Shown: in pieces, positions 1 through 58,961 of the stretch
How positions within the stretch are numbered: position 1 is the stretch's first letter
How the letters are laid out: each line of letters opens with the position of its first letter
Source of the DNA: a virus
Taxonomy: Duplodnaviria > Heunggongvirae > Uroviricota > Caudoviricetes
Direction: 5' to 3' (one strand)
Length of the DNA stretch: 64,000 nucleotides
Virus record (IMG/VR): IMGVR_UViG_3300029610_000357
Span: 52,285-116,284 of that record
Program-made: the position numbers and the translations under genes
Notes under the pieces: model-generated
Databases searched by the model: none
What the model saw: the letters and a program-made list of their open reading frames with translations, nothing else
What the model was told of the DNA's origin: nothing

Positions 1-623
1 TTCTTAGTTTCTTCATCCAAAAAGTTAACAAGCTGAGAGTAGAGTAGAGGCATGTCTTTTTCACTTGGGTATTCATCAAATGGATCATACCCAATGATTT
101 TAATGACATCCTTCCTATTTTGTTCATATGCTTCTTTAAGAGCTTCAGCATCGGTATAAATGGATTCTGTTTTCACCTTCGACACATGAGTCATATCTTT
201 AAAAATATCACTATCACGCCAACGCTTGCCATGATACTGATTCAAACCAAGACTTGTTAGATAAACACCCCATATAGTTTTATTTTCTTTCTTTTTACCT
301 CTTTCTGGAGGCTTGTTTGCACTGAATACAGCAGTTTCCCATAAATCTTCATAGAATGGCTTATCTAAATACTCTAAAGCATCTTGAACGCTTTCTCTTG
401 TCTCTCCAAGAAATTCTCCAGCATCAGTTTTTCTACGAGCAACAGCAGTAGAACAATCTTTACAGATTCTTGTAATACCTGTTAAAACTCTAGGATCTGA
501 ACTACTATAGAATTTTGTCTTTGGAAGATCTTTGTTGCAAAAAGGACAGCGAAATGTTTCTTCTTTTTGTGCTTGTACCTTTTTAGCAGAGGATTGTGTA
601 CGGCGCATTGCAGTTTTCGCCAT
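1..623 (-). CDS. partial CDS, zinc-ribbon protein of unknown function (C-terminus lies beyond left edge)
   Basis: Own minus-strand translation from ATG 623-621: MAKTAMRRTQSSAKKVQAQKEETFRCPFCNKDL...RICKDCSTAVARRK. Open to nt 1, with a CxxC..CxxC pair. Missing from the ORF track only because it has no stop in the window. Confidence 0.55.
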   Translation of the reverse strand, partial: MAKTAMRRTQSSAKKVQAQKEETFRCPFCNKDLPKTKFYSSSDPRVLTGITRICKDCSTAVARRKTDAGEFLGETRESVQDALEYLDKPFYEDLWETAVFSANKPPERGKKKENKTIWGVYLTSLGLNQYHGKRWRDSDIFKDMTHVSKVKTESIYTDAEALKEAYEQNRKDVIKIIGYDPFDEYPSEKDMPLLYSQLVNFLDEETK

Positions 624-2252: not shown

Positions 2253-2262
2253 TTGGACATAG

Positions 2263-2335
<73 letters not shown>

Positions 2336-2519
2336 ACAAAAAGAGTACATTGTAACTACCAACAATGTACTCAAACTTAGAAAAGAGGTATAAATTATGA
2401 TTCCTACAAGAAATCTTAATAGCTTTGTAAATCTTTCTGAGGTATGAAACAACAGTAGAAAAGCGCAATAATCAAAACTTCACAAGAAAGGAGATAATAT
2501 GATTCCTCAGAAAGATTAA

Positions 2520-2591
2520 CAGGGATAACTGGATTTGAACCAGTGAATACAGCAGTCAAAGTGCTGTGCCTTACCGCTTGGCGATATCCCT
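2520..2591 (-). tRNA. tRNA-Gln(UUG)
   Basis: Acceptor AGGGATA/TATCCCT, anticodon arm CAGCA-CTTTGAC-TGCTG, T-arm ACTGG-TTCAAAT-CCAGT. Confidence 0.9.
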
Positions 2592-3204
2592 ATATGTATT
2601 TTAATTTTAAAGCAGGTCTTCACCTTACAGTCATTTGTGGAATAGTTTGTTCTGCAACATAGTAGATAAGTCTGAGCTTCGAGGAGCGACCTCTAACTTC
2701 TTACCTAAGTCTAAAAGACCAGTTCTATGACATGATCAATACATGCAATGTCAACCCACCATTCAGAATTAAGTTTTATTGTTATATACTCTATTAGCAT
2801 ATATATTCATTTTGAATTTGAACTTGCCCTTAACTGACTTGAGCGACATACCAGCGACTTTTCTTATACACTGTCTTTTGAACAGCTTCACATCAAACTA
2901 CATTATTTGGCTTTTCCACCTTTTACGTACCTGCCAGAGTACGCATTGAAGTGGATTATTCTCCACAGGAGCGTCTATTGTTGTAGCGAAAAGTTCTGTG
3001 CGTTAACCAGACCAAAATGCTGCACAATATCCATTTGCTTGAGAGTTTCTCTCTTGTCCATATCAGATCACTCCGACATAAAAAGAGACACAAAGAACGT
3101 ATCCGTACAATGTATCTCTCCAATTCGACATATGTGCCTAGAATATCTCTCGGACTCATGGCATTGAGTTTTATAACCGAGTTGCTTATGTTTTAAAATA
3201 CAAA
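2592..3204 (-). other. 613-nt ORF-free spacer inside the tRNA array (possible co-transcribed structured RNA)
   Basis: Flanked directly by tRNA-Gln and tRNA-Trp. Only short overlapping shadow ORFs without RBS, and no tRNA fold found by eye. Confidence 0.3.
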
Positions 3205-3276
3205 CACCCTAAGCTGGATTTGAACCAGCACGAACGGTTTTGGAGACCGTCATTCTACCAACTAAATTATTAGGGC
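3205..3276 (-). tRNA. tRNA-Trp(CCA)
   Basis: Acceptor GCCCTAA/TTAGGGT, anticodon arm ACGGT-CTCCAAA-ACCGT, T-arm GCTGG-TTCAAAT-CCAGC. Confidence 0.85.
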
Positions 3277-3283
3277 GATATTA

Positions 3284-3357
3284 CTGACATGACAGGACTC
3301 GAACCTGCAACACCAACGTCCGTAGCGTTGTGCTCTGTCCAGTTGAGCTACATGTCA
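3284..3357 (-). tRNA. tRNA-Arg(ACG)
   Basis: Acceptor TGACATG/CATGTCA, D-arm GCTC..GAGC, anticodon arm CAACG-CTACGGA-CGTTG, T-loop TTCGAGT. Confidence 0.9.
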
Positions 3358-3570
3358 ATAACGAATATGTATTTACCTCTCATACGTACACACTGGCGAG
3401 ACAATACATATTTCTAAAAAGCAACAGTGTGTAAGTATTGCTTTTCTAGGGCGAACTGAAGTGATGAACTCCATCAGAATATCAGAAGAGGTATACATTC
3501 CAATATCCACCAACCATCAGGGTGTTCGCATATTTTTTGGTTAATCTATCGTATAGTTACTAACCTAATC

Positions 3571-3656
3571 ATCCCTGTTGAGGGAATCGAACCCACTCGT
3601 GACCGAAGCCGCAAAATTTACAGTTTTGCCTGTCTCCTTAGCAGTATAAACAGGGA
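3571..3656 (-). tRNA. tRNA-Tyr(GUA), type II with long variable arm
   Basis: Acceptor TCCCTGT/ACAGGGA, anticodon arm GCAAAA-CTGTAAA-TTTTGC, variable arm GGCTTCGGTCAC, T-loop TTCGATT. Confidence 0.8.
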
Positions 3657-3695
3657 TATTAGCCCACAAGTCCGAAGAACATTGTAGGACAAACA

Positions 3696-3770
3696 TCACA
3701 CCAACGAGAGTCGAACTCGTATTGCATCCGTGAAAGGGATGTGTCCTAAAACCATTTAGACGATGGTGCG
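3696..3770 (-). tRNA. tRNA-Glu(UUC)
   Basis: Acceptor CGCACCA/TGGTGTG, Glu-type D-arm GTCT..AGGAC, anticodon arm CATCC-CTTTCAC-GGATG, T-arm ACGAG-TTCGACT-CTCGT. Confidence 0.85.
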
Positions 3771-3776
3771 ATTTAG

Positions 3777-3868
3777 CGTACGGACTGGGCTACGACCCCA
3801 GGATACACATGTTCGTATGTATACAGGATTAGCAATCCTGCGCATTAAACCAGCTCTGCCACCCGTAC
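3777..3868 (-). tRNA. tRNA-Ser(GCU), type II
   Basis: Acceptor GTACGGG/TCCGTAC, anticodon arm CAGGA-TTGCTAA-TCCTG, 22-nt variable arm, T-arm CTGGG-GTCGTAG-CCCAG (non-canonical T-loop). Confidence 0.8.
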
Positions 3869-5213: not shown

Positions 5214-6068
5214 TTATTTTTTGTCAGAATTATAGTATTTGGTATATCTATTTAACTGCATTTCACTCTTACAAGAAGTACAATACTGTCTAAGCCGTCC
5301 TTTACGATGCTTTTTCTTTTTTGAGATGTCTCTAAAAGGTTCTCCACAACAGGAGCATACAGAAATCTCAGGATATCCAATAAAGTGAAGGTATCTGTTC
5401 CCAAGATTCTTGAAGTCTGTAATCTCAAGAGCAACATCTCCTGAATCGACAAGAATATCTACAGAGAAGTTTAAGCTATTAACTTTCTTGCTCATTGTTA
5501 TACAATCGCTTCTGAACAGCCTGCCGATTATTTGGCATCTACGTTCTCTTGTACCTACTGTATTACCCAATGAGAATAAATATTTGTAGTCTGTATTCAC
5601 CCAATTATTGTTTTGAGGATTCAGAGCATTATAATACTTGGCCAAGCAAAGAGCAGTGAAGAGAATCTTTTGATCTCTAAGATTCTCTAACCCATTTATG
5701 GTTTCCATTTCAGACTCATAGATCGGCAGTGAATCAATTTCCACAAGAGGATACTTTTTAGCTTTGTGAATGATCTCATCAATGCATGAATACCATTTAG
5801 CTTCTCTGTAGCTCTCACAGGACTCTTTTAAGAACTCATTGATAGTTTTATATACCTGTGCAGGTTCTAAGCCTTTCTCGTGGATGTAATACTTTGCAAG
5901 CAGGGTAGCAGTATATGGGATACTGCTTTCCAACTCTTTTGTTTCTAAAATTTTTTCTACCAGTGTTTTTTCATTCAGTACGATATTAATAACAATCAGC
6001 CTCCTCAAACATAGATGATTCAATTTGTTTAATAGTTTCAATGACGAAAGAATCTCCGTCATATTCAA
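5214..6068 (-). CDS. hypothetical protein with C-terminal zinc ribbon (CSCCG..CTSC); start uncertain
   Basis: ORF track. The 5' 83 nt overlap the upstream gene, so the true start may be internal. Confidence 0.5.
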   Translation of the reverse strand: MNMTEILSSLKLLNKLNHLCLRRLIVINIVLNEKTLVEKILETKELESSIPYTATLLAKYYIHEKGLEPAQVYKTINEFLKESCESYREAKWYSCIDEIIHKAKKYPLVEIDSLPIYESEMETINGLENLRDQKILFTALCLAKYYNALNPQNNNWVNTDYKYLFSLGNTVGTRERRCQIIGRLFRSDCITMSKKVNSLNFSVDILVDSGDVALEITDFKNLGNRYLHFIGYPEISVCSCCGEPFRDISKKKKHRKGRLRQYCTSCKSEMQLNRYTKYYNSDKK

Positions 6069-7128
6069 AATCTCCTGATTCAGCTCTTACAGGATAAGAG
6101 ATCTGGTGATAGTTTCTCTCTAAGAGTCTTTGGACAAGGATGTCTCCAAACATGTCCCATACAAACTGCTTACTCTTGCCATTGGTATAGCAGAGGTCAA
6201 GAAGAATGTCACAAGCTTTCTCAGGATCAGGAACAGCAGTGGCAACAGCTTCTCTGAACAACATGACTCGGTTATTGATGATGTCTGTTACATTTAGTCC
6301 AAAGACACCCCGGCCATTGATTAGAGCATTCAGGGTTTTCATTTTCTTTGAATACTCGCTGTATAACTTCTTAAGAGCATAATAATCATTCTTGTTGTAC
6401 TCATGATCTCTTTTGAGAATGGAGTAATCAAAATCTGTTTGTGTATTCAACTTCTTTAAGTAGCCATCAAACTCATCCTCAAAGAGCTTACAGATTCGAT
6501 TCATTACACAAGGCCCTGTACCTACAGGTAAGAACTTATAGTAGTGATCTAAGAATTCTGCTTCATCCTCTGTGATAGGTTCTGTATCAGCTTTCTTGAG
6601 CAATTCATCAATCGTGCATCCAAACCAGATAATACATTTATCGTTTGAAGCTTTCACATAATTTGTGTAATCCTTTCTCAGGTGAGAGTAAATGTAGATC
6701 ATGAAGTATGGTTTCTTGTCAGCTACGATTCTCTGATTGAATTCTTTTCGCTTACGATCCTTTGATGAGTCTTCAGGATGGATGTTGTTGTCTTTTCTGT
6801 TATACCAGTAAGATGGGATAGGTTTACACACAATGCCCTTCAATTTGTCAATCGAATTTTGTTGGTATAGCTGACCGCAAATGATTCTGTAATCCAGTTC
6901 TTTAAACTCATCACTGTCAGGAGAGTAATGAGACTGTACTTCAAACTGAGAAGTGATGATGTTTGTTGTGAAGCCAATTTCGTCTCCAAAGGCATCCTTG
7001 TAAGCTTTTAAAATGTCTTTTCGTTTAGGGACAATCTTGTTAGCTTTGCGTTGAGCACAAATGATTGATGGAAGAGGACGATTGTTTTCAACAAGTATTC
7101 TATTGTTAGTTGTGAAGAAGAGGTCTCC
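5986..7128 (-). CDS. YonO-like single-subunit two-barrel RNA polymerase candidate, exon 2
   Basis: Frame stays open upstream of the track start. Own translation from 7128 gives GDLFFTTNNRILVENNRPLPSIICAQRKANKIVPKRKD...LKGIVCKPIPSYWY. Length is 1143 nt (381 codons), joining in frame to exon 1. Confidence 0.6.
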   Translation of the reverse strand, partial: GDLFFTTNNRILVENNRPLPSIICAQRKANKIVPKRKDILKAYKDAFGDEIGFTTNIITSQFEVQSHYSPDSDEFKELDYRIICGQLYQQNSIDKLKGIVCKPIPSYWYNRKDNNIHPEDSSKDRKRKEFNQRIVADKKPYFMIYIYSHLRKDYTNYVKASNDKCIIWFGCTIDELLKKADTEPITEDEAEFLDHYYKFLPVGTGPCVMNRICKLFEDEFDGYLKKLNTQTDFDYSILKRDHEYNKNDYYALKKLYSEYSKKMKTLNALINGRGVFGLNVTDIINNRVMLFREAVATAVPDPEKACDILLDLCYTNGKSKQFVWDMFGDILVQRLLERNYHQISYPVRAESGDFEYDGDSFVIETIKQIESSMFEEADCY

Positions 7129-7464
7129 CGATGTACCCTCGGTTTCCCGATATTTATGGAGAAAGGGGACTAGACTATATCATTACACAGCATAGGTCTT
7201 ACACTGTGATGCTCGGCACTTCCCTTGGGGAGTTTCACCCTTTTGGTACTCTACTTGCTACCGATACCGTATTCCTCGAATATCAGTGCTTTGGATAGTC
7301 GTTTGACTTTCAATTTCTGCTTAGCACAGGATTACCACCGGCATTACCCGCTGAGGCTCCCCTGTTAGCATATGCGTTAACTTCCATTTCCTGAAGCTAC
7401 TGTACGTCACATATACACCTTACATTTGTAAGTTCACCGAGTTTTACTTCGACCAAGTAAACTA
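7129..7464 (-). ncRNA. group I self-splicing intron, ORF-less (336 nt)
   Basis: 5' exon ends UUCGAU. The intron guide GUCGAA (11 nt in) pairs with it, giving a U.G wobble at the splice site. The intron ends ..GGUACAUCG (terminal G). It contains GAUAUAGUCUAGUCC and is homologous to the intron at 56040-56387. Confidence 0.7.
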
Positions 7465-9114
7465 ATCGAAGTCGCAACCGTTAAGTGATTCACATGTATT
7501 ATCCCAATCATTGATCACACAAATGGATGGGAGATACTGGAACCAGTATGAAAGCTGCTCATTGTTCTTCACTTTAAGATTGACGATGTTATAATGGCTT
7601 GTCATTGGAGCTCTGAAGCAAGCTACTTCATCAACCTGTCTATCGATCCAATGCTTGTGATACATTTCTCCTGCTTTAAGCAATCCTGTAACTTCAAGTC
7701 CAAACATGGATTGCATGAGAGCATATGGATCACCAGCAACGATTGAATAATTACCTTTCACTTTGATGCGTCCGATCTTAGCATCTTGGATTCGTTTCTT
7801 GATGAGAGAATGAATCTTAGATCGAATGAAAGGATCTTTGATCATCTCAGGTTCAGCTATGAGTGCCTGAATGTATGTAAAAGCATCTGACTGTAAGATG
7901 TTCTTCTCAGTCATATTCTTACCTCGCAGGAAGAGCAGAGTCTTTCTGTAATCCATCCCAAGAATGTCTTTGATCTCTTTTATGGTTGGCTCACAAAGCT
8001 CTCTTATTTGGTCGTCTGTAAGATAATAGCTCTGTAAGAACTGATAGTTAAGATTCCTTTCAGTATCACATTCTTGTTCGGCTGTTTTGGCAAGAGCAAA
8101 GTGATAATCATACTTCTCAATGTTCTCTAAGTAGTCTTCCATAGAGTCATATGCATCCCATAGCTTAAACATAGATGTTGTAAGTATCACCTGAGCGTCT
8201 CTAACGTCCCTAGGATGGCCCCAAGCATCAATAATGGTATAAGTCTTAGCTACGTCCTCTGCAAAGGCTCTAAAGTCCATACAGTGAAGCATACCTTTAC
8301 AGAATGGCCATCCTCTCATGTTGCCAGATGGAAGAGGAGTATCATAATCTCCATTCAGTTCACCATTCCATTGTCTTGCAAGTTCTGGAAGAACTAATCC
8401 TTCTCCATCAGACCCATTGTGTACAAACTCTTGATCATCAAGAAGAGTTACTTCTGGTTCATCTGAGTTTGTATCATCCACATAAAGAGCTTGTCCCTTA
8501 AAGATCGTCTCACAGTCTTGTACAACAATCACTCCTGATGGTGGAGTAACAACTGTAGAAGAAGAGCAGAAGAGTGCTTTGTACGCTCCGAGCTTGTTTG
8601 GTATGATCGGAACTTCTTTATTCCTCCCGGCATCTACTTTCTCACAGAGAGCATCGTATACATTGTCACTGACAAAGATTACAACACTGTTCTTTAAGCC
8701 TCCTGTGGTTCCTAAGAAGAGATTGTAGTGGAGATCATTTACAATGAATCCATGCTTGCTGCAGTAGTCATAATCTTTCTTTGTGTCGAAGACCACTGTG
8801 AGGTAGTCTGTTTGGAATCGACATTTGTACAGATCATTGTAGAGTAGTGAGATAAGTTCTTTGCTTCCTCTGTTGGCTGAAAGCTCTTTGATCTTCTTTC
8901 GGATTCTTTTTGCTCTTATGTCTGAATCATAGTCATGGATCAATGAGTCAATTGTTCTTAATGCTTCAGAACTTGAAAGAGTAATAATGTCGTCTCCATT
9001 CTCCCTCGCTTCATTGAGTGGTAGAGAAAGTTTCCACTTCGCCTTTCTTAATCGGCTGCTGTGTAGTTTGTAAATATATTTCTGACTCGTTTTTTGCTTA
9101 GAAATAATGATCAC
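7465..9114 (-). CDS. YonO-like single-subunit two-barrel RNA polymerase candidate, exon 1
   Basis: 550 codons ending ...CESLNGCDFD. Splicing to exon 2 restores NGCDFDGD, resembling the NADFDGD/DxDGD metal-binding motif of two-barrel RNAPs. Confidence 0.6.
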
Positions 9115-32481: not shown

Positions 32482-32631
32482 GGGGACATAGCTTAATAGG
32501 TAAAGCAAAACTATATTTTTCCATAAAGAACTTAAAACTAAAATTTTCATATTAAATATAAACATTTTGTACCTCCCTATTGTAATAAAATAACACTTAT
32601 ATTTATGTGGGTTCGAGTCCCACTGTCCCCA
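32482..32631 (+). tRNA. tRNA-like gene interrupted by a ~75-nt AT-rich insertion; anticodon unresolved
   Basis: GGGGACA-TA-GCTT-AATAGGTA-AAGC ... GTGGG-TTCGAGT-CCCAC-TGTCCCC-A. Acceptor, D- and T-arms are perfect, but no 5-7-5 anticodon arm can be drawn. Confidence 0.45.
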
Positions 32632-50710: not shown

Positions 50711-52302
50711 GATTAATTAATAAGCGAGCCATTGTACAGGTGTTAGGCTGCTTATTAAATAAACCAGACCTGTTAGATACCTATTATATAGAAGAAATAG
50801 ATGTTGACGAAGACTTTTATGTGTATATTTTGAATACAATTAAAGTTTTACATAAGCAAAATGTACCAGTGATTGATGCATTTGCAATTGATTCTTATCT
50901 ATCGTCTTATGATGCTCAGTATAAGATCTTTTCGATGAATAATGGTGTGGATTACATAGAGAACGCTAAGAAAATAGCTGTTCTTGAGAACTTTGAGTAC
51001 AACTACAAGACTCTTAAGAAGTTCACATTATTGAGATATTACGACTATAAGGGAACTGATATTAAATTCATTTATGATCCAACAAAGTTGAATCCTGAGG
51101 ATCAGGAGAGAGAGACAAGGAAATTAGATGAATATACAGTAGATGAGATTATCGAGCTTGTTGAGCTGGAAATGGTTACAAAGCCTAAGTTACATTTTAA
51201 TACAGTTCAATCAGAACAGGGACAGTTAGCTGGATCTGGACTGAAAGAATTAAAAGAGAAATGGAAACAAGAGCCAGAGTTCGGTATTTCATTACAAAGT
51301 CCAACAATGAACACAATTGCCAGAGGAGCTCGATTGAAAAAGTTTTATTTGAGATCAGGTGGAACAGCCTCAGGTAAAACAAGAATGGCTGTTGGAGATG
51401 TTTGTACGTATTCTGTACCATGGTTTTATGATACTTTCGAGTGCGAATGGAAATTTACAGGTTTCTCAGAGCCAGCTTTGTTTATCTCAACAGAATTAGA
51501 GGCAGATGAGATTCAGAGTATGATCATAGCTTTTGTAAGTGGTGTAAACGAATCTAAAATCTTGGATGGTAAATATTCAGGAGATGAAGAAGAACGTGTA
51601 GATAAAGCTATTCAGTTTATTGAGAGCGCCCCTTTATATATTGAACACATTGATGATTTTGATATTAATGATATTGAGAATCTAATCAAGAGATATAAAA
51701 AAGAAAAGGGTGTGCTGTATGTAAGCTTTGACTACATTCATACATCAGTAAAGTTGATCATGCAAATTGCCAGTATGTCAAAGGGAATGAAATTACAAGA
51801 ACATCAGATCTTATATATGTTTGCTATAAAACTAAAAGAACTCTGCAATAAGTTAGGAGTACATATTGATTCAAGTACACAGCTTAATGGAGAGTATAAA
51901 AATGCAAGAGATAAGGATGAGACTCTCTTGCGAGGCGCAAAAAGTATAGCAGATAAGATAGATATAGGTATTATATCAATGCCTCCGACAAGAGAGGAAC
52001 TCAAAGCAGTAGAACCGATCTTAGAAGACAGAGGCGTAACGATGAATCCAAACTTAATTTACCATATATATAAGGTAAGAAGAGGAAAGATTTCACGAGT
52101 TCGATTGTGGCTTCATGCAGATCTAGGTACATGTAGATCATATGATCTGTTTGTAACAAACAATGACAATGAGCTTATACCAGTCGAACAAATAACAATT
52201 GAAAATGTAGAACAGATTCTTGAAGATAACTCAGTAGAGCATGACGACATTCCATTAAATGAAGAAGAACACGATGAAGCTATTAAGCAGTTTTTCTTTT
52301 AG
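50704..52302 (+). CDS. dnaB: DnaB-like replicative helicase
   Basis: Walker A GGTASGKT, RecA-like core, DnaB-type N-terminal domain. TTG start after GGAGGTGG. Confidence 0.75.
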   Translation: MVGLINKRAIVQVLGCLLNKPDLLDTYYIEEIDVDEDFYVYILNTIKVLHKQNVPVIDAFAIDSYLSSYDAQYKIFSMNNGVDYIENAKKIAVLENFEYNYKTLKKFTLLRYYDYKGTDIKFIYDPTKLNPEDQERETRKLDEYTVDEIIELVELEMVTKPKLHFNTVQSEQGQLAGSGLKELKEKWKQEPEFGISLQSPTMNTIARGARLKKFYLRSGGTASGKTRMAVGDVCTYSVPWFYDTFECEWKFTGFSEPALFISTELEADEIQSMIIAFVSGVNESKILDGKYSGDEEERVDKAIQFIESAPLYIEHIDDFDINDIENLIKRYKKEKGVLYVSFDYIHTSVKLIMQIASMSKGMKLQEHQILYMFAIKLKELCNKLGVHIDSSTQLNGEYKNARDKDETLLRGAKSIADKIDIGIISMPPTREELKAVEPILEDRGVTMNPNLIYHIYKVRRGKISRVRLWLHADLGTCRSYDLFVTNNDNELIPVEQITIENVEQILEDNSVEHDDIPLNEEEHDEAIKQFFF

Positions 52303-54629: not shown

Positions 54630-56039
54630 ATGACAGATTTAGAATTTTATTCATTACACAATCATACTGAATATTCAAATATAAGGTTAATTGATTGTAT
54701 CAATAAGATTCCTATGTTAATCAAAAGAGCGGTTAAATTGGGCATGAAAGGAATTGCGATCACTGATCATGAAACATTAAGTGGTCATATTCAGGCAATG
54801 ATTTATGTCCGTGATGAGAAAAAGAAAGGTAACATTCCCAAGGATTTTAAATTGATTCTTGGGAATGAAATCTATCTAGTCAATGGAACCGCAGATTACA
54901 TAAAGGAAAATTTTAAAGCTGGAGATGGGAAGTTGTTTTATCATTACATTCTTTTAGCAAAGGATGAAATTGGTCATAGACAGCTTAGAGAATTGAGTTC
55001 AAATGCATGGGACAGATCTTTTCAAACAGGAAAAATGACAAGAGTTCCAACTGAGAAATCAGACCTTGAGAAGATCATAAGAAAAGAACCGGGTCATTTG
55101 ATTGCATCGACAGCTTGCTTAGGCGGAGAGCTTCCTACTTTGATTATGCAGATGGAAGAAGCTCAAAGTGAACTGGAAGTATATGAAGCCAAATGTAAAA
55201 TTGATGATTTCGTTCGATGGAACATTGATTTGTTTGGTGAAGATTTCTTTTTTGAAATGCAACCGGGAGCATCTGAAGAACAAGAAAAGGTTAATAAATG
55301 GTTACTTAAATTGTCAAAAGTTTATGGTGTTAAGTGTATCATAACAACCGATTCACATTATTTATCTAAGAATTCTCAGATGATTCATAAAGCGTATTTG
55401 CAAAGTAAAGAGGAAGAAAGAGAAGTAGATGATTTCTATCAGACTACATATTTAATGGAAATTCCAGAAATGTACGATTACATGAAGTACTTTGACGAAG
55501 AAACTATAGCAGAAGCTATCAACAATACAGCGATCATTGGAAACAAGATTAAAGAGTATTCATTAAGTTGTTCTACGATCGTCCCTGAAGCAGAAGTACC
55601 AAAATTTGAAGTAGAAAATTATTTTGAAAAATATTATCAGAGATTTACAACACTGCAGGAATACGCAAATAGCAGCAACATCTATGACAGATATCTGTTG
55701 TACTTAATTGAAAAGGGATATCAGAAGAAAGAAATTCATGCAAAAGTTCGCAGGAATGACTTTACCGAAGAGCAAAAAGTGGAACGAATAGCTATTGAAT
55801 TACAAGAGATGGCATTGGTTACAGAGAAGATTAAGTCAAGTATTTCTTCCTATTATATATCAACCTTAGAACTAATCAATATCATGTGGAAAGAGGGAGA
55901 TAGCTTGGTAGGGGTAGCCAGAGGATCAGTTACTGGTATGTATACAATGTATTTAATTGATTTAATACAAATGAATCCTTTAGATTGGGGATTGCCTCAT
56001 TGGAGACATATTTCCCATGAGAAAGCAGAGTTATCGGAT
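54630..56039 (+). CDS. dnaE: DNA polymerase III alpha (DnaE-like), exon 1 (PHP domain)
   Basis: FYSLHNHTEYS..., ITDHETLSG. The exon ends ...HEKAELSD; the track ORF continues into the intron and stops. Confidence 0.85.
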
Positions 56040-56387
56040 TTGAAAAAGTCCGCTTATATAGTGATATATATGACAAAATGTGGTGAACCCATAAATATGG
56101 GGTGTGCGTAAGTGCTAACGGTATCAGTTAAATAAGGCAAGGCTCGAATACGCTGACTAAGAGAACCTACGGTCTTGAAAGAGATAGCAGGCAATACCGT
56201 GCTAAGTAAAGAAGTGTAACGACTAAATTGGACAAACTTATAAAACTGTCCTAAGAGGAATAAGGTGAAAGTCCTTATCTGTAGTGCCACACACGAGAAA
56301 TCCTTGTATAAGCAAGCCAATGGATTAACATTGGGTGATGAGATAGTCTAGTCCGTACAGAAATATCACGAAAGTGACGGTAGATCG
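56040..56387 (+). ncRNA. group I self-splicing intron, ORF-less (348 nt)
   Basis: 5' exon CGGAU pairs with the intron guide GUCCG (10 nt in), giving a U.G wobble at the splice site. The intron ends GGUAGAUCG and contains GAGAUAGUCUAGUCC. Joining 56039/56388 restores ELSD-VDIDS (the PDIDID region) in frame with 56559..58961. Confidence 0.75.
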
Positions 56388-58961
56388 GTTGATATTGATT
56401 CACAAAAGAATCGTAGAGAACAAATTATCTCTGCTGTAAAAGATCGAAAAGGAGAAAGAAGAGTATTAAATTGTTGTACATTCAAAACAGAAGGTAGCAA
56501 ATCGGCTATTTTAACTTCATGTAGAGCTTTAGGAATTGATCCAGATACTTCTAGTTATTTGGCTGGAATGGTACCAGTAACAAGAGGTGCTACATGGAGT
56601 TTACATGATTGTATATACGGAAACGAAGAAAAAGAACGAGAAGCAGTGCCGGGGTTTGAGAATGAAATGAGAAGTCATGATCAATTACTTGACATTGCAA
56701 TGGGAATTGAAGGACTAATTTGTGGAAGATCTATTCATGCTTCTGCAGTGTATGTCTTTAATGAAGATTTTATTGCTCATAATGCTCGAATGAAAGCCCC
56801 AAATGGAGTGTTAACAACTCAGTTTAATATGGCTGATTCAGATGAATGTGGTGGGTTAAAGATGGATTTCTTAACGATTGAAGCGCTTGACAAGATCCGC
56901 CTGACAATGGAACAGCTCATTGATGCAGGGTATATGGAATGGCAAGGATCATTAAGAGAAACATATGATAAATATCTTCATCCAGATGTTCTTGATTATG
57001 AAACTAGAGAAATGTGGGATTGGGTAGCAGAAAACAAAGTTGTGGATCTGTTTCAGTTTAATACACAGACAGGATTACAGGCAGCAAGACGTATCCAACC
57101 TCATAGCTTGGAAGAATTGGCTGCAGCAAACTCTATTATGAGACTTATGGTAACAGAAGAGGGAGCTGAACAGCCGATTGATACTTATATTAGATTTAAA
57201 AATGATATTGGCCAATGGTATGACTTGATGAGAACGAAGTATCATTTGACTGATCATGAAATTGAAATTTTAGAGAAATACCTTAAATCCAATTATGGTG
57301 TAGGTGATACTCAGGAAATTGTAATGGAAATCAGTATGGATAAAGAGATTGCTGATTTTAGTGTTGCTGATAGCAATAAGCTGAGGAAAAGTATTGCAAA
57401 GAAGAAACCAGCTTTACAGCAAGCAATGAAAGAGCAATTTTTTGAGAGGGGAAAAGAAAACCATGCTTCAGATAATCTGTTGAACTACGTTTGGAAAGAA
57501 GTTGTAGGGAAACAGCTTGGGTATTCCTTTTCTAAGAATCATACCTATCCATACAGTGCTATAGGATTGCAGGAGTTAAATCTTGCATATCATTATCCGA
57601 TTATTTATTGGAATACAGCTTGCTTAACCGTAAATGCAGGAGCTGATGAAGAATCTAAAGGATCTAAGCAGTCTACAGATTACGGAAAAGTAGCAACGTC
57701 TATAGCACAAATGCAGAAGAGAGGTATTAAAATTCAAGCTCCACTGATTAACAAAGCGGAATTAGGATTTAAAGCCGATGAAGAGAACAATGCAATCTTA
57801 TTTGCATTAAAGAGTATTTCAGGAATCGGTGATGATGTAGTAGAAATTATAAGACAAGCAAGGCCATTCGCTTCATTTGAAGATTTTTATGAAAGAATGG
57901 TTGCCACAAAGCTAGTCAAAACAGGTCAGGTAATTCAGTTGATTAAAGCAGGTTGCTTTGATGAATTTGATGAAAACAGAGTAGATTTGCTTTATACGAT
58001 CGTAAGATTATGTAAATGTAATCTAATCTCAAGTCTGACTAAATCACAATTGAATCGTATGCAGGAATTACAATTTATGTATCCAGAGCTTAATCTTATT
58101 CCAGATGAAGTTTTAGATGGAATTCAAGTATACAATTTCTCACAGTATGTAAAAGAATTGAAAGTTGTAAAGAAATATATTGATCCGTCAAGAAAAATGT
58201 TGAAGTGTGGCTATCATGATGAAATCATTGAACTAGATGATAGAGCAATGCAATTTTTCATAAATCACTACACAGAAGATTCCATCTATGACGTTAAAGA
58301 TGAATATTACTTGATTTACAAAAAGAAATTCAATAAAGAAACTGAAAAGAAATTAGAGTCTCTTAGAGAATATCTGGCTAACCCGAATACATTACTTAAG
58401 TATAATAAAGCTCTCGTGAAAGATGAGGCCAAGAAAGTGGTTACAGGAACCACATCTCATATGGAAATGGAATCACTGTGTGTTTATGTACATGAACATG
58501 AATTGGCAGACCTTAACAAAGATGAATTCAATATCGTCAATTTCTTTAATCTTTCAGAAGAACCAGTAGTTGCATCTACGTATAAAAGAAAGGTTAAGAG
58601 GGTTGAGAATGGACAAGAGATTCAAGAAGTCAAAGAGTTCCCTAAGTATTTTATTAGTAAGATCTGGGGAACTGTCTTAGACAAGAATAAGGATCGACAT
58701 ACGGTTACATTATTGACCCCTGAGGGAGTTGTAAATGTGAAATATACCAAAGGAGCTTTCTTACATTATAACAAGAAGACCTCAATAGAAGAGTCTTGGT
58801 TCAAGAGAGGCCAAATAATAATGGTTACTGGGTATCGCAATGGCGATATGTTCAGATGCTATAACTATGGAGACACAATCTTCAAACATACTACATCATT
58901 GATTACAAACATCGGAGAGAAAGGAGTAGAGGTAATGACAGAAAGGATGAGAGAAGCATGA
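56388..58961 (+). CDS. dnaE: DNA polymerase III alpha (DnaE-like), exon 2
   Basis: Own translation from 56388: VDIDSQKNRREQIISAVKDRKGERRVLNCCTFKTEGSKSAIL..., 57 codons upstream of and in frame with the track ORF. Confidence 0.85.
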   Translation, partial: VDIDSQKNRREQIISAVKDRKGERRVLNCCTFKTEGSKSAILTSCRALGIDPDTSSYLAGMVPVTRGATWSLHDCIYGNEEKEREAVPGFENEMRSHDQLLDIAMGIEGLICGRSIHASAVYVFNEDFIAHNARMKAPNGVLTTQFNMADSDECGGLKMDFLTIEALDKIRLTMEQLIDAGYMEWQGSLRETYDKYLHPDVLDYETREMWDWVAENKVVDLFQFNTQTGLQAARRIQPHSLEELAAANSIMRLMVTEEGAEQPIDTYIRFKNDIGQWYDLMRTKYHLTDHEIEILEKYLKSNYGVGDTQEIVMEISMDKEIADFSVADSNKLRKSIAKKKPALQQAMKEQFFERGKENHASDNLLNYVWKEVVGKQLGYSFSKNHTYPYSAIGLQELNLAYHYPIIYWNTACLTVNAGADEESKGSKQSTDYGKVATSIAQMQKRGIKIQAPLINKAELGFKADEENNAILFALKSISGIGDDVVEIIRQARPFASFEDFYERMVATKLVKTGQVIQLIKAGCFDEFDENRVDLLYTIVRLCKCNLISSLTKSQLNRMQELQFMYPELNLIPDEVLDGIQVYNFSQYVKELKVVKKYIDPSRKMLKCGYHDEIIELDDRAMQFFINHYTEDSIYDVKDEYYLIYKKKFNKETEKKLESLREYLANPNTLLKYNKALVKDEAKKVVTGTTSHMEMESLCVYVHEHELADLNKDEFNIVNFFNLSEEPVVASTYKRKVKRVENGQEIQEVKEFPKYFISKIWGTVLDKNKDRHTVTLLTPEGVVNVKYTKGAFLHYNKKTSIEESWFKRGQIIMVTGYRNGDMFRCYNYGDTIFKHTTSLITNIGEKGVEVMTERMREA

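Follow-up and report, generated by a model that had tools for sequence, protein, structure and literature searches.

The window analysed here is the whole stretch of 64,000 nucleotides (nt) at positions 52,285 to 116,284 of IMG/VR record IMGVR_UViG_3300029610_000357, a virus of the class Caudoviricetes. On its minus strand lies the gene for a YonO-like RNA polymerase (RNAP), in two coding pieces separated by 336 nt (Table 1). As far as sequence analysis can take us, these 336 nt are very probably a splicing-competent group I intron of the IA type, without an open reading frame (ORF) of its own, in the polymerase gene of a ~130-kb human-gut phage, and the insertion falls between catalytic aspartates 2 and 3 of the enzyme. 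An earlier note, made from the letters of this DNA alone, had proposed an ORF-less group I intron inside the catalytic motif DFD|GD; the boundaries, the fold and the homology to YonO all agree with that proposal.

Exon 1 ends in the codons AAC GGU UGC GAC UUC GAU (N-G-C-D-F-D), and the first triplet of the intron, UAG (7464..7462), is an in-frame stop right after it. The intron closes with ACAUCG, its last base being the omega-G, and exon 2 starts GGA GAC CUC UUC (G-D-L-F-F), in frame with exon 1. Joined, the exons form a single ORF of 930 amino acids (aa), ...ESLNGCDFD|GDLFFTTNN..., with TGCGACTTCGAT|GGAGACCTCTTC as the spliced junction and ...SLNGCDFDGDLFFTTNNR as the junction peptide. The exon lengths of 1650 and 1143 nt, the in-frame joining and the final G of the intron, all claimed earlier, are correct to the base. 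The ORF list holds no sense-strand ORF of ≥40 aa inside 7129..7464, and the guanine plus cytosine content is 44% in the intron against 35% in the window.

Searched against proteins, the spliced sequence matched P0001, which comes from a metagenome, has 930 aa without interruption and is 97% identical. When its gene (contig L001, 6001-8793) is aligned at the DNA level with the window gene, there is a single gap of exactly 336 nt, at 7464..7129. The window reads GAT(336 nt)GGA where L001 reads GAT|GGC, no base is duplicated or lost, and a shift of the intron boundaries by one base in either direction breaks the match. This alignment is the strongest single piece of sequence evidence that 7129..7464 is removed precisely. 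For exon 1, the assignment also draws on a PHROGs match (phrog_25339) over aa 4-550 and on alignment to the intron-less P0001 and to YonO.

Inteins and insertion sequence (IS) elements are also found in phage polymerase genes, and a putative intein is annotated in the DNA polymerase region of phage Romulus. Here, however, the in-frame stop at the first intron codon, together with the lack of any sense-strand ORF of ≥40 aa, means that the element cannot encode an intein. There is no target-site duplication at the junction relative to the empty allele, as regards an IS or miniature inverted-repeat transposable element; 336 nt is far too small for a group II intron; and the core motifs and fold of a group I intron are present. 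That some such other element interrupts the gene is scarcely credible.

The interrupted protein is, by homology, a YonO-like single-chain two-barrel RNAP. BLASTP aligned the spliced protein with YonO of phage Goe12 (E 1e-32), placing F-D-N-D-G-D opposite C-D-F-D-G-D, and tblastn against GenBank phages found the yonO genes of SPbeta-like phages ("DNA-directed RNA polymerase"; YonO E 1e-19), Clostridium phage c-st and Enterocloster phages. PF05183 ("RdRP") is precomputed for many close homologues of the spliced protein; the window protein itself had no Pfam match at E up to 1, and a PDB sequence search with it returned nothing. Its PHROGs matches are all of unknown function: phrog_25339 covers exon 1 only, phrog_35857 exon 2 only and phrog_8308 the full length. 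Separate PHROGs for the exon halves point to split annotations of this gene already in the databases.

In an alignment of 20 homologues that includes YonO, D548, D550 and D552 are invariant and residue 549 varies (F, H, K, N), and the earlier placement of the insertion in a catalytic DFD|GD motif of an RNAP is correct. YonO's triad of aspartates is catalytic by experiment, the 3D>3N mutant being inactive (PMC5467207), and it is this correspondence that puts the intron between the second and third catalytic aspartate. YonO of the Bacillus prophage SPbeta is a homologous single-chain two-barrel RNAP with the D-x-D-G-D triad in common (Forrest et al. 2017, PMC5467207), and HU-like and YonJ-like neighbours occur both beside yonO and at loci related to that of the window. 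The SPbeta gene is uninterrupted and encodes 839 aa, whereas the window gene encodes 930 aa, has an intron and is accompanied by a separate 284-aa ORF that overlaps its end. The C-terminal Cys4 (Zn-ribbon) region of that ORF aligns to the YonO C-terminus (E 1e-4), and its c-st homologue is CST177, annotated "YonO C-ter". These similarities make it a probable second polypeptide of this polymerase, and the YonO homologue in the window lineage seems to be divided into polypeptides of 930 and 284 aa.

The primary transcript would make no polymerase, because the first codon of the intron is UAG and there is no start near the 5' end of exon 2. The first in-frame start codon of exon 2 comes 95 codons past the junction. 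These 95 codons are colinear with intron-less homologues, and their ratio of nonsynonymous to synonymous divergence (dN/dS) is 0.02-0.13 against same-site relatives, the synonymous divergence (dS) being saturated against more distant ones. A segment under such constraint and without a start must be translated fused to exon 1. Since expression as two polypeptides would, moreover, split one metal-binding loop, splicing is required for function.

Table 1. Features of the interrupted RNAP gene, its intron and a second interrupted gene. Intron nt n corresponds to window coordinate 7465 minus n.
Feature	Window position	Intron nt	Strand	Remarks
Exon 1, YonO-like RNAP gene	9114..7465		(-)	1650 nt, 550 codons, GTG start
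Group I intron (predicted)	7464..7129		(-)	336 nt; 336-nt gap versus intron-less allele, RF00028, covariation
Exon 2	7128..5986		(-)	1143 nt, 380 codons + stop; translation, phrog_35857
Downstream overlapping ORF	5214..6068		(-)	284 aa; overlaps RNAP gene end
P1	7471..7465 with 7453..7447	exon -7..-1 with 12-18	(-)	CUUCGAU with GUCGAAG; 7 bp, U-1.G12 wobble
P3 5' strand	7435..7441	24-30	(-)	CUCGGUG; pairs with 7212..7218
P3 3' strand	7212..7218	247-253	(-)	UGCCGAG; just before P8
Hairpin 1	part of 7368..7432	33-46	(-)	covariation
Hairpin 2	part of 7368..7432	49-97, inner stem 67-86	(-)	covariation
P4-P5-P6 domain	7306..7365	100-159	(-)	Rfam alignment, covariation
P4		100-105 with 134-139		
P5		109-117 with 124-130		
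P6		140-142 with 157-159		minimal loop where relatives hold HNH ORF
P7 5' strand	7296..7300	165-169	(-)	GACUA, inside R-like motif AAACGACUAU
P7 3' strand	7173..7177	288-292	(-)	UAGUC, inside S-like motif GAUAUAGUCU
P7.1, P7.2	7223..7289	176-208, 219-242	(-)	peripheral hairpins typical of subgroup IA; compensatory changes
P8	7186..7208	257-279	(-)	6/7 pairs changed on both sides
P9 module	7136..7167	298-329	(-)	outer stem CCC/GGG; hairpin UCGG-GAAA-CCGA
P9 GAAA tetraloop	7143..7146		(-)	
Omega-G	7129	336	(-)	
Second ORF-less group I intron (predicted)	~56044..56387		(+)	~344 nt; same ribozyme family; DNA polymerase III alpha-like gene
Exons of second-intron gene	54630-56043 and 56388-58961		(+)	

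For helix P1, the earlier note had paired exon UUCGAU with the guide GUCGAA, with a U.G at the splice site. This pairing is borne out, the full helix having 7 bp. The guide tracks the exon at other insertion sites as well: the pairs are AAUUGGAU/GUCCAAUU in the second intron of Enterocloster phage CB473P3, CGGAU/GUCCG in a second intron of the window and UUACGGU/GCCGUAG in the Agatevirus DNA polymerase I intron, and the U.G stands at the splice site in all these relatives. The 64-kb window has two occurrences of the paired core motifs AACGACUA...AUAGUCUAGUCC, each within an intron, against 0.00 expected. A single-sequence fold of minimum free energy recovers P1, P3, two extra hairpins that follow P3, P4, P7.1, P8 and P9.

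A number of observations weigh against a splicing group I intron. An Rfam scan of the window at gathering scores gave ROOL RNA and transfer RNAs (tRNAs), and no group I intron. A permissive scan of 6900..7700 (801 nt) with the Rfam group I model, RF00028, gave a match at 7474..7150 (-) over the full model length (E 0.0027), whose 22.2 bits lie below the gathering score of 50; the covariance-model check proposed in the earlier note thus formally failed. The single-sequence fold is not significantly more stable than shuffled sequences (z = -1.77), P10 has at best 3 bp, and a pair of hairpins between P3 and J3/4 departs from the textbook group I scheme. Among phage introns of related families, some were spliced only in infected cells and not in vitro, according to a study of Bastillevirinae (PMC11878797). 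Finally, the exact 930-aa spliced protein is absent from a collection of 15 billion proteins, and a scan for the junction pattern gave one distant intron-less homologue, 11 chance matches and no complementary DNA.

The RF00028 shortfall is a weakness of the model for this family of phage introns, not of the intron. The RF00028 alignment covers P1, P3, P4 (ACAGGG/CCUGU), P5, P6 and P8 as well as the motifs CAAACGACUA and GAUAUAGUCU; P7.1/P7.2 and hairpins 1 and 2 (Table 1) appear in it only as unaligned insertions. The separation of P3 from J3/4 by two hairpins is probably part of the reason for the low score. Existing models may fail on phage introns, a caution also given in the Bastillevirinae study (PMC11878797).

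Because RF00028 scored below the curated 50 bits, the fold was tested independently, on six introns at the same site gathered from metagenomes and IMG/VR. Standard pairs fill 99.4% of 485 cells, and 24 of the 81 pairs are changed on both sides. In 500 shuffles, the paired fraction, the double-change counts and the covariation score always stayed below the observed values, and pairing falls to 33-39% when the 3' partners are slid by 1-3 columns. P1 is 100% paired across the six introns, and the P7.1 and P7.2 helices carry compensatory changes. The same is true of 11 pairs in hairpins 1 and 2, which have no counterpart in the Rfam consensus alignment. P7, the expected place of the guanosine-binding site in group I cores, is invariant in this set, so its support comes from its motif.

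P3 was examined in 34 distinct and diverse introns of the family, which lie in other genes and were collected via a common 3' motif with an nhmmer profile plus synthetic concatenated P3 halves. Pairing reaches 97.1% here and at most 55% in slid controls; cells with double changes number 67, where shuffles give 19.0. Only its first four bases served to select the 3' half-site, and the outer pairs are therefore an unbiased test. A P3 at the textbook position (nt 94-98/251-255) was ruled out: nt 89-97 pair with 49-57, with compensatory changes, and metagenomic phage MT835481 lacks a partner.

P7.1/P7.2 lie after the P7 5' strand and before the P3 3' strand, a position by which the intron is of the subgroup IA type. 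The T4 td and Twort orf142 introns, of subgroup IA2, have P7.1/P7.2 in this same place. They also have in common with the window intron the R and S motifs ...AACGACUAU... and ...GAUAUAGUCU..., AGUAG(G/A)GU after P7.1 and a GAAA-type hairpin at L9, and the Twort introns are likewise ORF-less or short. In td and Twort, however, the P3 5' strand stands directly before J3/4, the IA2 arrangement, whereas the window intron has two covariation-supported hairpins between them. The family of the window intron therefore represents a variant architecture, and this is present also in known Herelleviridae introns.

Blastn of the intron matched 299 phage records of Staphylococcus, Bacillus, Enterococcus, Listeria and Clostridium, and sequence similarity assigns the ribozyme to the family of DNA polymerase introns of Bacillus and Staphylococcus Herelleviridae phages. 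The Agatevirus DNA polymerase I intron, like that of the window, has P1, then UAAAA, then P3 (CGUGGUG/CGCCACG). Its first hairpin, CUUACAAAUGUAAG, is identical to the window's and is followed by a second hairpin and GCUAAC-P4, and both introns have AACGACUAUC, GAGUAGAGUAC, GAUAUAGUCUA and the 3' module AAUAUCGGGAAACCGAGGGUA. The order P3, hairpin, hairpin, P4 recurs in the polymerase intron of Silviavirus Romulus. The DNA polymerase introns of SPO1 and Bastille, with I-HmuI and I-BasI, are reportedly members of this Herelleviridae group, and sister copies of the window intron carry an endonuclease of the Pfam type of its nicking homing enzymes (HNH_3/NUMOD4). The differences lie in the setting. 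Herelleviridae introns interrupt DNA polymerase genes of Bacillus and Staphylococcus phages, whereas the window intron is ORF-less, interrupts a YonO-like RNAP gene and is of a type found in human-gut phages, whose named relatives infect Clostridia.

From this fold we infer the course of catalysis. P1 and its U.G wobble would arise from pairing of the guide GUCGAAG with the seven bases that end exon 1 (codons D-F-D), and an external guanosine bound at P7 would attack after U-1. The 3'-terminal G (7129) would then occupy the guanosine site, and the exons would be ligated to GAU|GGA, which would restore DFDGD and the 930-aa enzyme.

Whether this course would run without help deserves some care. 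Of nine Bastillevirinae genes tested, eight were spliced: four introns were able to self-splice in vitro, and for the other four splicing was seen only in infected cells (PMC11878797). This result is for the subfamily and is not specific to the DNA polymerase I intron with the window's architecture. P10 is weak in the window intron, and as the intron opens with a stop codon, translation of the polymerase strictly depends on splicing. One could therefore imagine that the intron needs a phage or host protein (maturase, chaperone) or in vivo conditions, and is a gate on RNAP production rather than a neutral passenger. We consider this unlikely, though by no means far-fetched. The core is complete: it has the L9 GAAA tetraloop and P7.1/P7.2, and every helix is conserved. 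As the common allele is ORF-less, an intron-encoded protein is not needed, and no candidate cofactor gene adjoins the RNAP gene. Self-sufficient splicing thus appears to be the better account.

The copies at the same site fall into two kinds, ORF-less introns of 336-354 nt (L009, L010, L011, L013-L017, L019, L020) and ORF-bearing introns of 897-910 nt (L002-L008, L012). HNH_3 ORFs of 157-171 aa lie within P6 in the sister copies L002-L008, L012 and L147. The earlier statement that there is no homing endonuclease ORF therefore holds for the window copy but not for the same ribozyme in near-identical phages. In L012, the ribozyme core is ~99% identical to that of the window, and a ~565-nt insert in the P6 loop supplies a Shine-Dalgarno sequence of its own and an ORF of 171 aa whose product has the domains HNH_3 and NUMOD4. 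L147 likewise has the ribozyme core (~99% identical) and the HNH ORF of L012, and its 550-aa exon 1 protein is identical to that of the window; seven further contigs with the identical exon 1 protein are ORF-less. The position of the P6 insert was set by alignment with L012, L008 and L002, and simply deleting the L012 insert would not give the P6 loop of the window (GCAGAAAUUG).

Phages with ≥98% identical exon 1 thus show three states: an empty site (L001), an ORF-less intron and an ORF-bearing intron. In this population, the ORF-less copies are the common allele. The P0001 cluster (1028 members) consists mostly of exon-1-only and exon-2-only fragments, from which the interrupted state appears to be the common one. 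At least 10 contigs have an exon 1 at ≥98% and an intron at 98.6-99.4% identity to the window, and so many intact copies argue that the ribozyme works.

These copies also bear on the idea that the insertion is a decayed, non-splicing relic, the polymerase being either a pseudogene or a split RNAP of two assembling polypeptides. Gene callers and PHROGs do hold the halves as separate proteins, the YonO C-terminus is already on a separate ORF in the window lineage, the intron lacks an endonuclease ORF, and RF00028 stays below its threshold. Yet a split here would part D548 and D550 from D552 of one metal-binding loop, and exon 2 would be left without a start for 95 conserved codons under strong purifying selection. 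Across the near-identical copies just described, compensatory pairing is kept, and both exons are intact and in frame in every copy. We judge a relic very improbable, and a functional intron remains the preferred explanation.

No HNH_3 homologue was found elsewhere in the 64-kb window, and no nuclease domain in the ORFs neighbouring the RNAP gene. Having no ORF, the window copy cannot home by itself; in view of its endonuclease-bearing sister copies, it is the ORF-less state of a homing intron. Between the window and L008, the introns are 92-93% identical and the exons 73-75%, so that between diverged phages the intron is better conserved than the gene around it, which points to horizontal movement. 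Compared with the empty allele L001, 76 of the 133 mismatches in the window gene lie within spliced nt 1600-2000, the site being at 1650; identity is 79-83% over the 300 nt after the site and 95-100% elsewhere, and the first 95 codons of exon 2 have a dS of about 2. Such a hyper-diverged tract beside the insertion site marks, to judge from its divergence, a past gene conversion. Intron-bearing alleles differ from one another mainly in this tract (88-91%), which suggests that this happened more than once. Along with the intron goes its exon context: alleles of the window type have C-D-F-D (from GAC UUC GAU, which is complementary to the guide), where the empty allele L001 has A-D-H-D (GCC GAT CAC GAT, followed by GGC GAC) and the family consensus is A-D-K-D.

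The intron may thus have arrived, and may spread, by DNA-level homing or gene conversion. Without the HNH_3 nicking endonuclease, the window copy would be inherited vertically, or would spread only by recombination or with a nuclease acting in trans, which would come from a co-infecting phage with the ORF-bearing intron. As a side observation, the distant intron-less homologue from the junction scan (L151, IMGVR_UViG_3300029705_002345; 45% identity) has an empty site of the DFD type, and its positions 2137-2156 hold the exact 20-nt spliced-junction sequence, TGYGAYTTCGAT|GGAGAYCT, as an uninterrupted potential homing site. A megablast of the whole gene against GenBank phages gave no match, nor did a host search in which the intron motif was scanned against GTDB genomes.

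The closest functional precedent is the group I intron in gp210 of PhiPA3, which lies in the RNAP beta subunit gene of a jumbo phage, adjoining conserved aspartates, and whose HNH nickase disables the intron-less homologue of PhiKZ in co-infection (Birkholz et al., Science 2024, PMC11620839). In PhiPA3 it is one subunit, beta, of a multi-subunit RNAP that is interrupted, next to residues other than those of the beta-prime catalytic triad, whereas in the window a single-chain enzyme is interrupted and the triad itself is split. The PhiPA3 intron, from a phage of Pseudomonas, carries its endonuclease; the window copy is ORF-less.

By analogy with PhiPA3 and PhiKZ, intron and nuclease together might be a weapon aimed at the catalytic centre of a rival gut phage's RNAP in co-infection, with the ORF-less intron as the immunity allele. 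If so, the commonest allele would be a cheap means of destroying the nuclease target without carrying the nuclease. Independently of this, the ribozyme architecture might define a large unclassified subgroup, in which case the two hairpins between P3 and J3/4 and the common P9 module, present in >119 viral contigs among the matches listed, would be systematically missed by RF00028. These wider readings are speculative, and we would put them forward as doubtful. As for the 3' module itself, AUAUCGGGAAACCGAGGGUA (the P9 hairpin with its GAAA loop) was found in those >119 IMG/VR contigs (loci L025-L141) in introns of many different genes. Several of the 3' exons begin with V/F-D-x-D codons, a pattern that suggests further insertions at polymerase active sites. 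On L018, a second copy of AUAUCGGGAAACCGAGGGUA lies at minus-strand offset 2260, ~1.4 kb from the RNAP intron. Upstream of it, P4'- and R-like motifs stand at the distances expected, and its 3' exon is a different one. Its motifs make it probably another nearby intron.

Insertions at the DxD|GD site are also found in named phages. Clostridium phage c-st has 317 nt there, between CST179 ("YonO N-ter") and CST178; in metagenomic phage MT835481 the intron has 948 nt and contains an ORF; and Enterocloster phage CB473P3 has an intron there plus a second one after the residue corresponding to 644 of the window protein. Its relative CB473P1 has only the second. The GenBank records of c-st, CB473P3 and MT835481 annotate no intron at the DxD|GD site. 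The second site, after ...QQNELD|KLKG, is occupied at 3060-3530 of L022 (CB473P3) and at 2027-3121 of L023 (CB473P1). In CB473P1, this intron holds a 250-aa ORF, and the records give only hypothetical proteins there.

A literature search on introns in yonO-like genes found nothing relevant. What is new here is the type of host gene, a YonO-like RNAP, for which no report of an intron was found; the ribozyme family is already known. A phage intron of this ordinary kind will not surprise the specialist, and it does not change what is known of how group I introns work or where they prefer to insert. Its practical value lies in annotation. YonO-like RNAP genes of Enterocloster phages and of many gut-phage contigs are now annotated as two or three unrelated "hypothetical proteins", and the c-st polymerase gene has been annotated in pieces (CST179/CST178) since 2005; once the intron is recognised, a single enzyme of 930 aa is recovered. 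A large family of phage introns escapes the Rfam group I model, both introns of the window scoring ~20 bits. In addition, one phage population displays the whole homing cycle, with empty, endonuclease-bearing and ORF-less sites and a sharp gene-conversion tract.

The second intron of the window belongs to the same ribozyme family. The PF07733 profile runs continuously over its junction, exon 1 ending at profile position 103 and exon 2 starting at 104, and at the level of sequence this continuity proves the intron. It scores 18.1 bits with RF00028 and splits ...ELSD|VDIDS, again an acidic polymerase motif.

Two other RNA features of the window should be mentioned. An Rfam tRNA match at 32482-32631 (+) spans 150 nt (42.5 bits) and was not called by ARAGORN. 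Its acceptor, D and T arms are intact, with an ~85-nt AT-rich insert in place of the anticodon arm, which would fit a tRNA that is interrupted or degenerate, or else a tRNA-like element. A full-length ROOL RNA at 2594-3205 (-) (306 bits, E 2e-69) is embedded in a cluster of seven tRNA genes at 2262-3868 (-), for Thr, Gln, Trp, Arg, Tyr, Glu and Ser.

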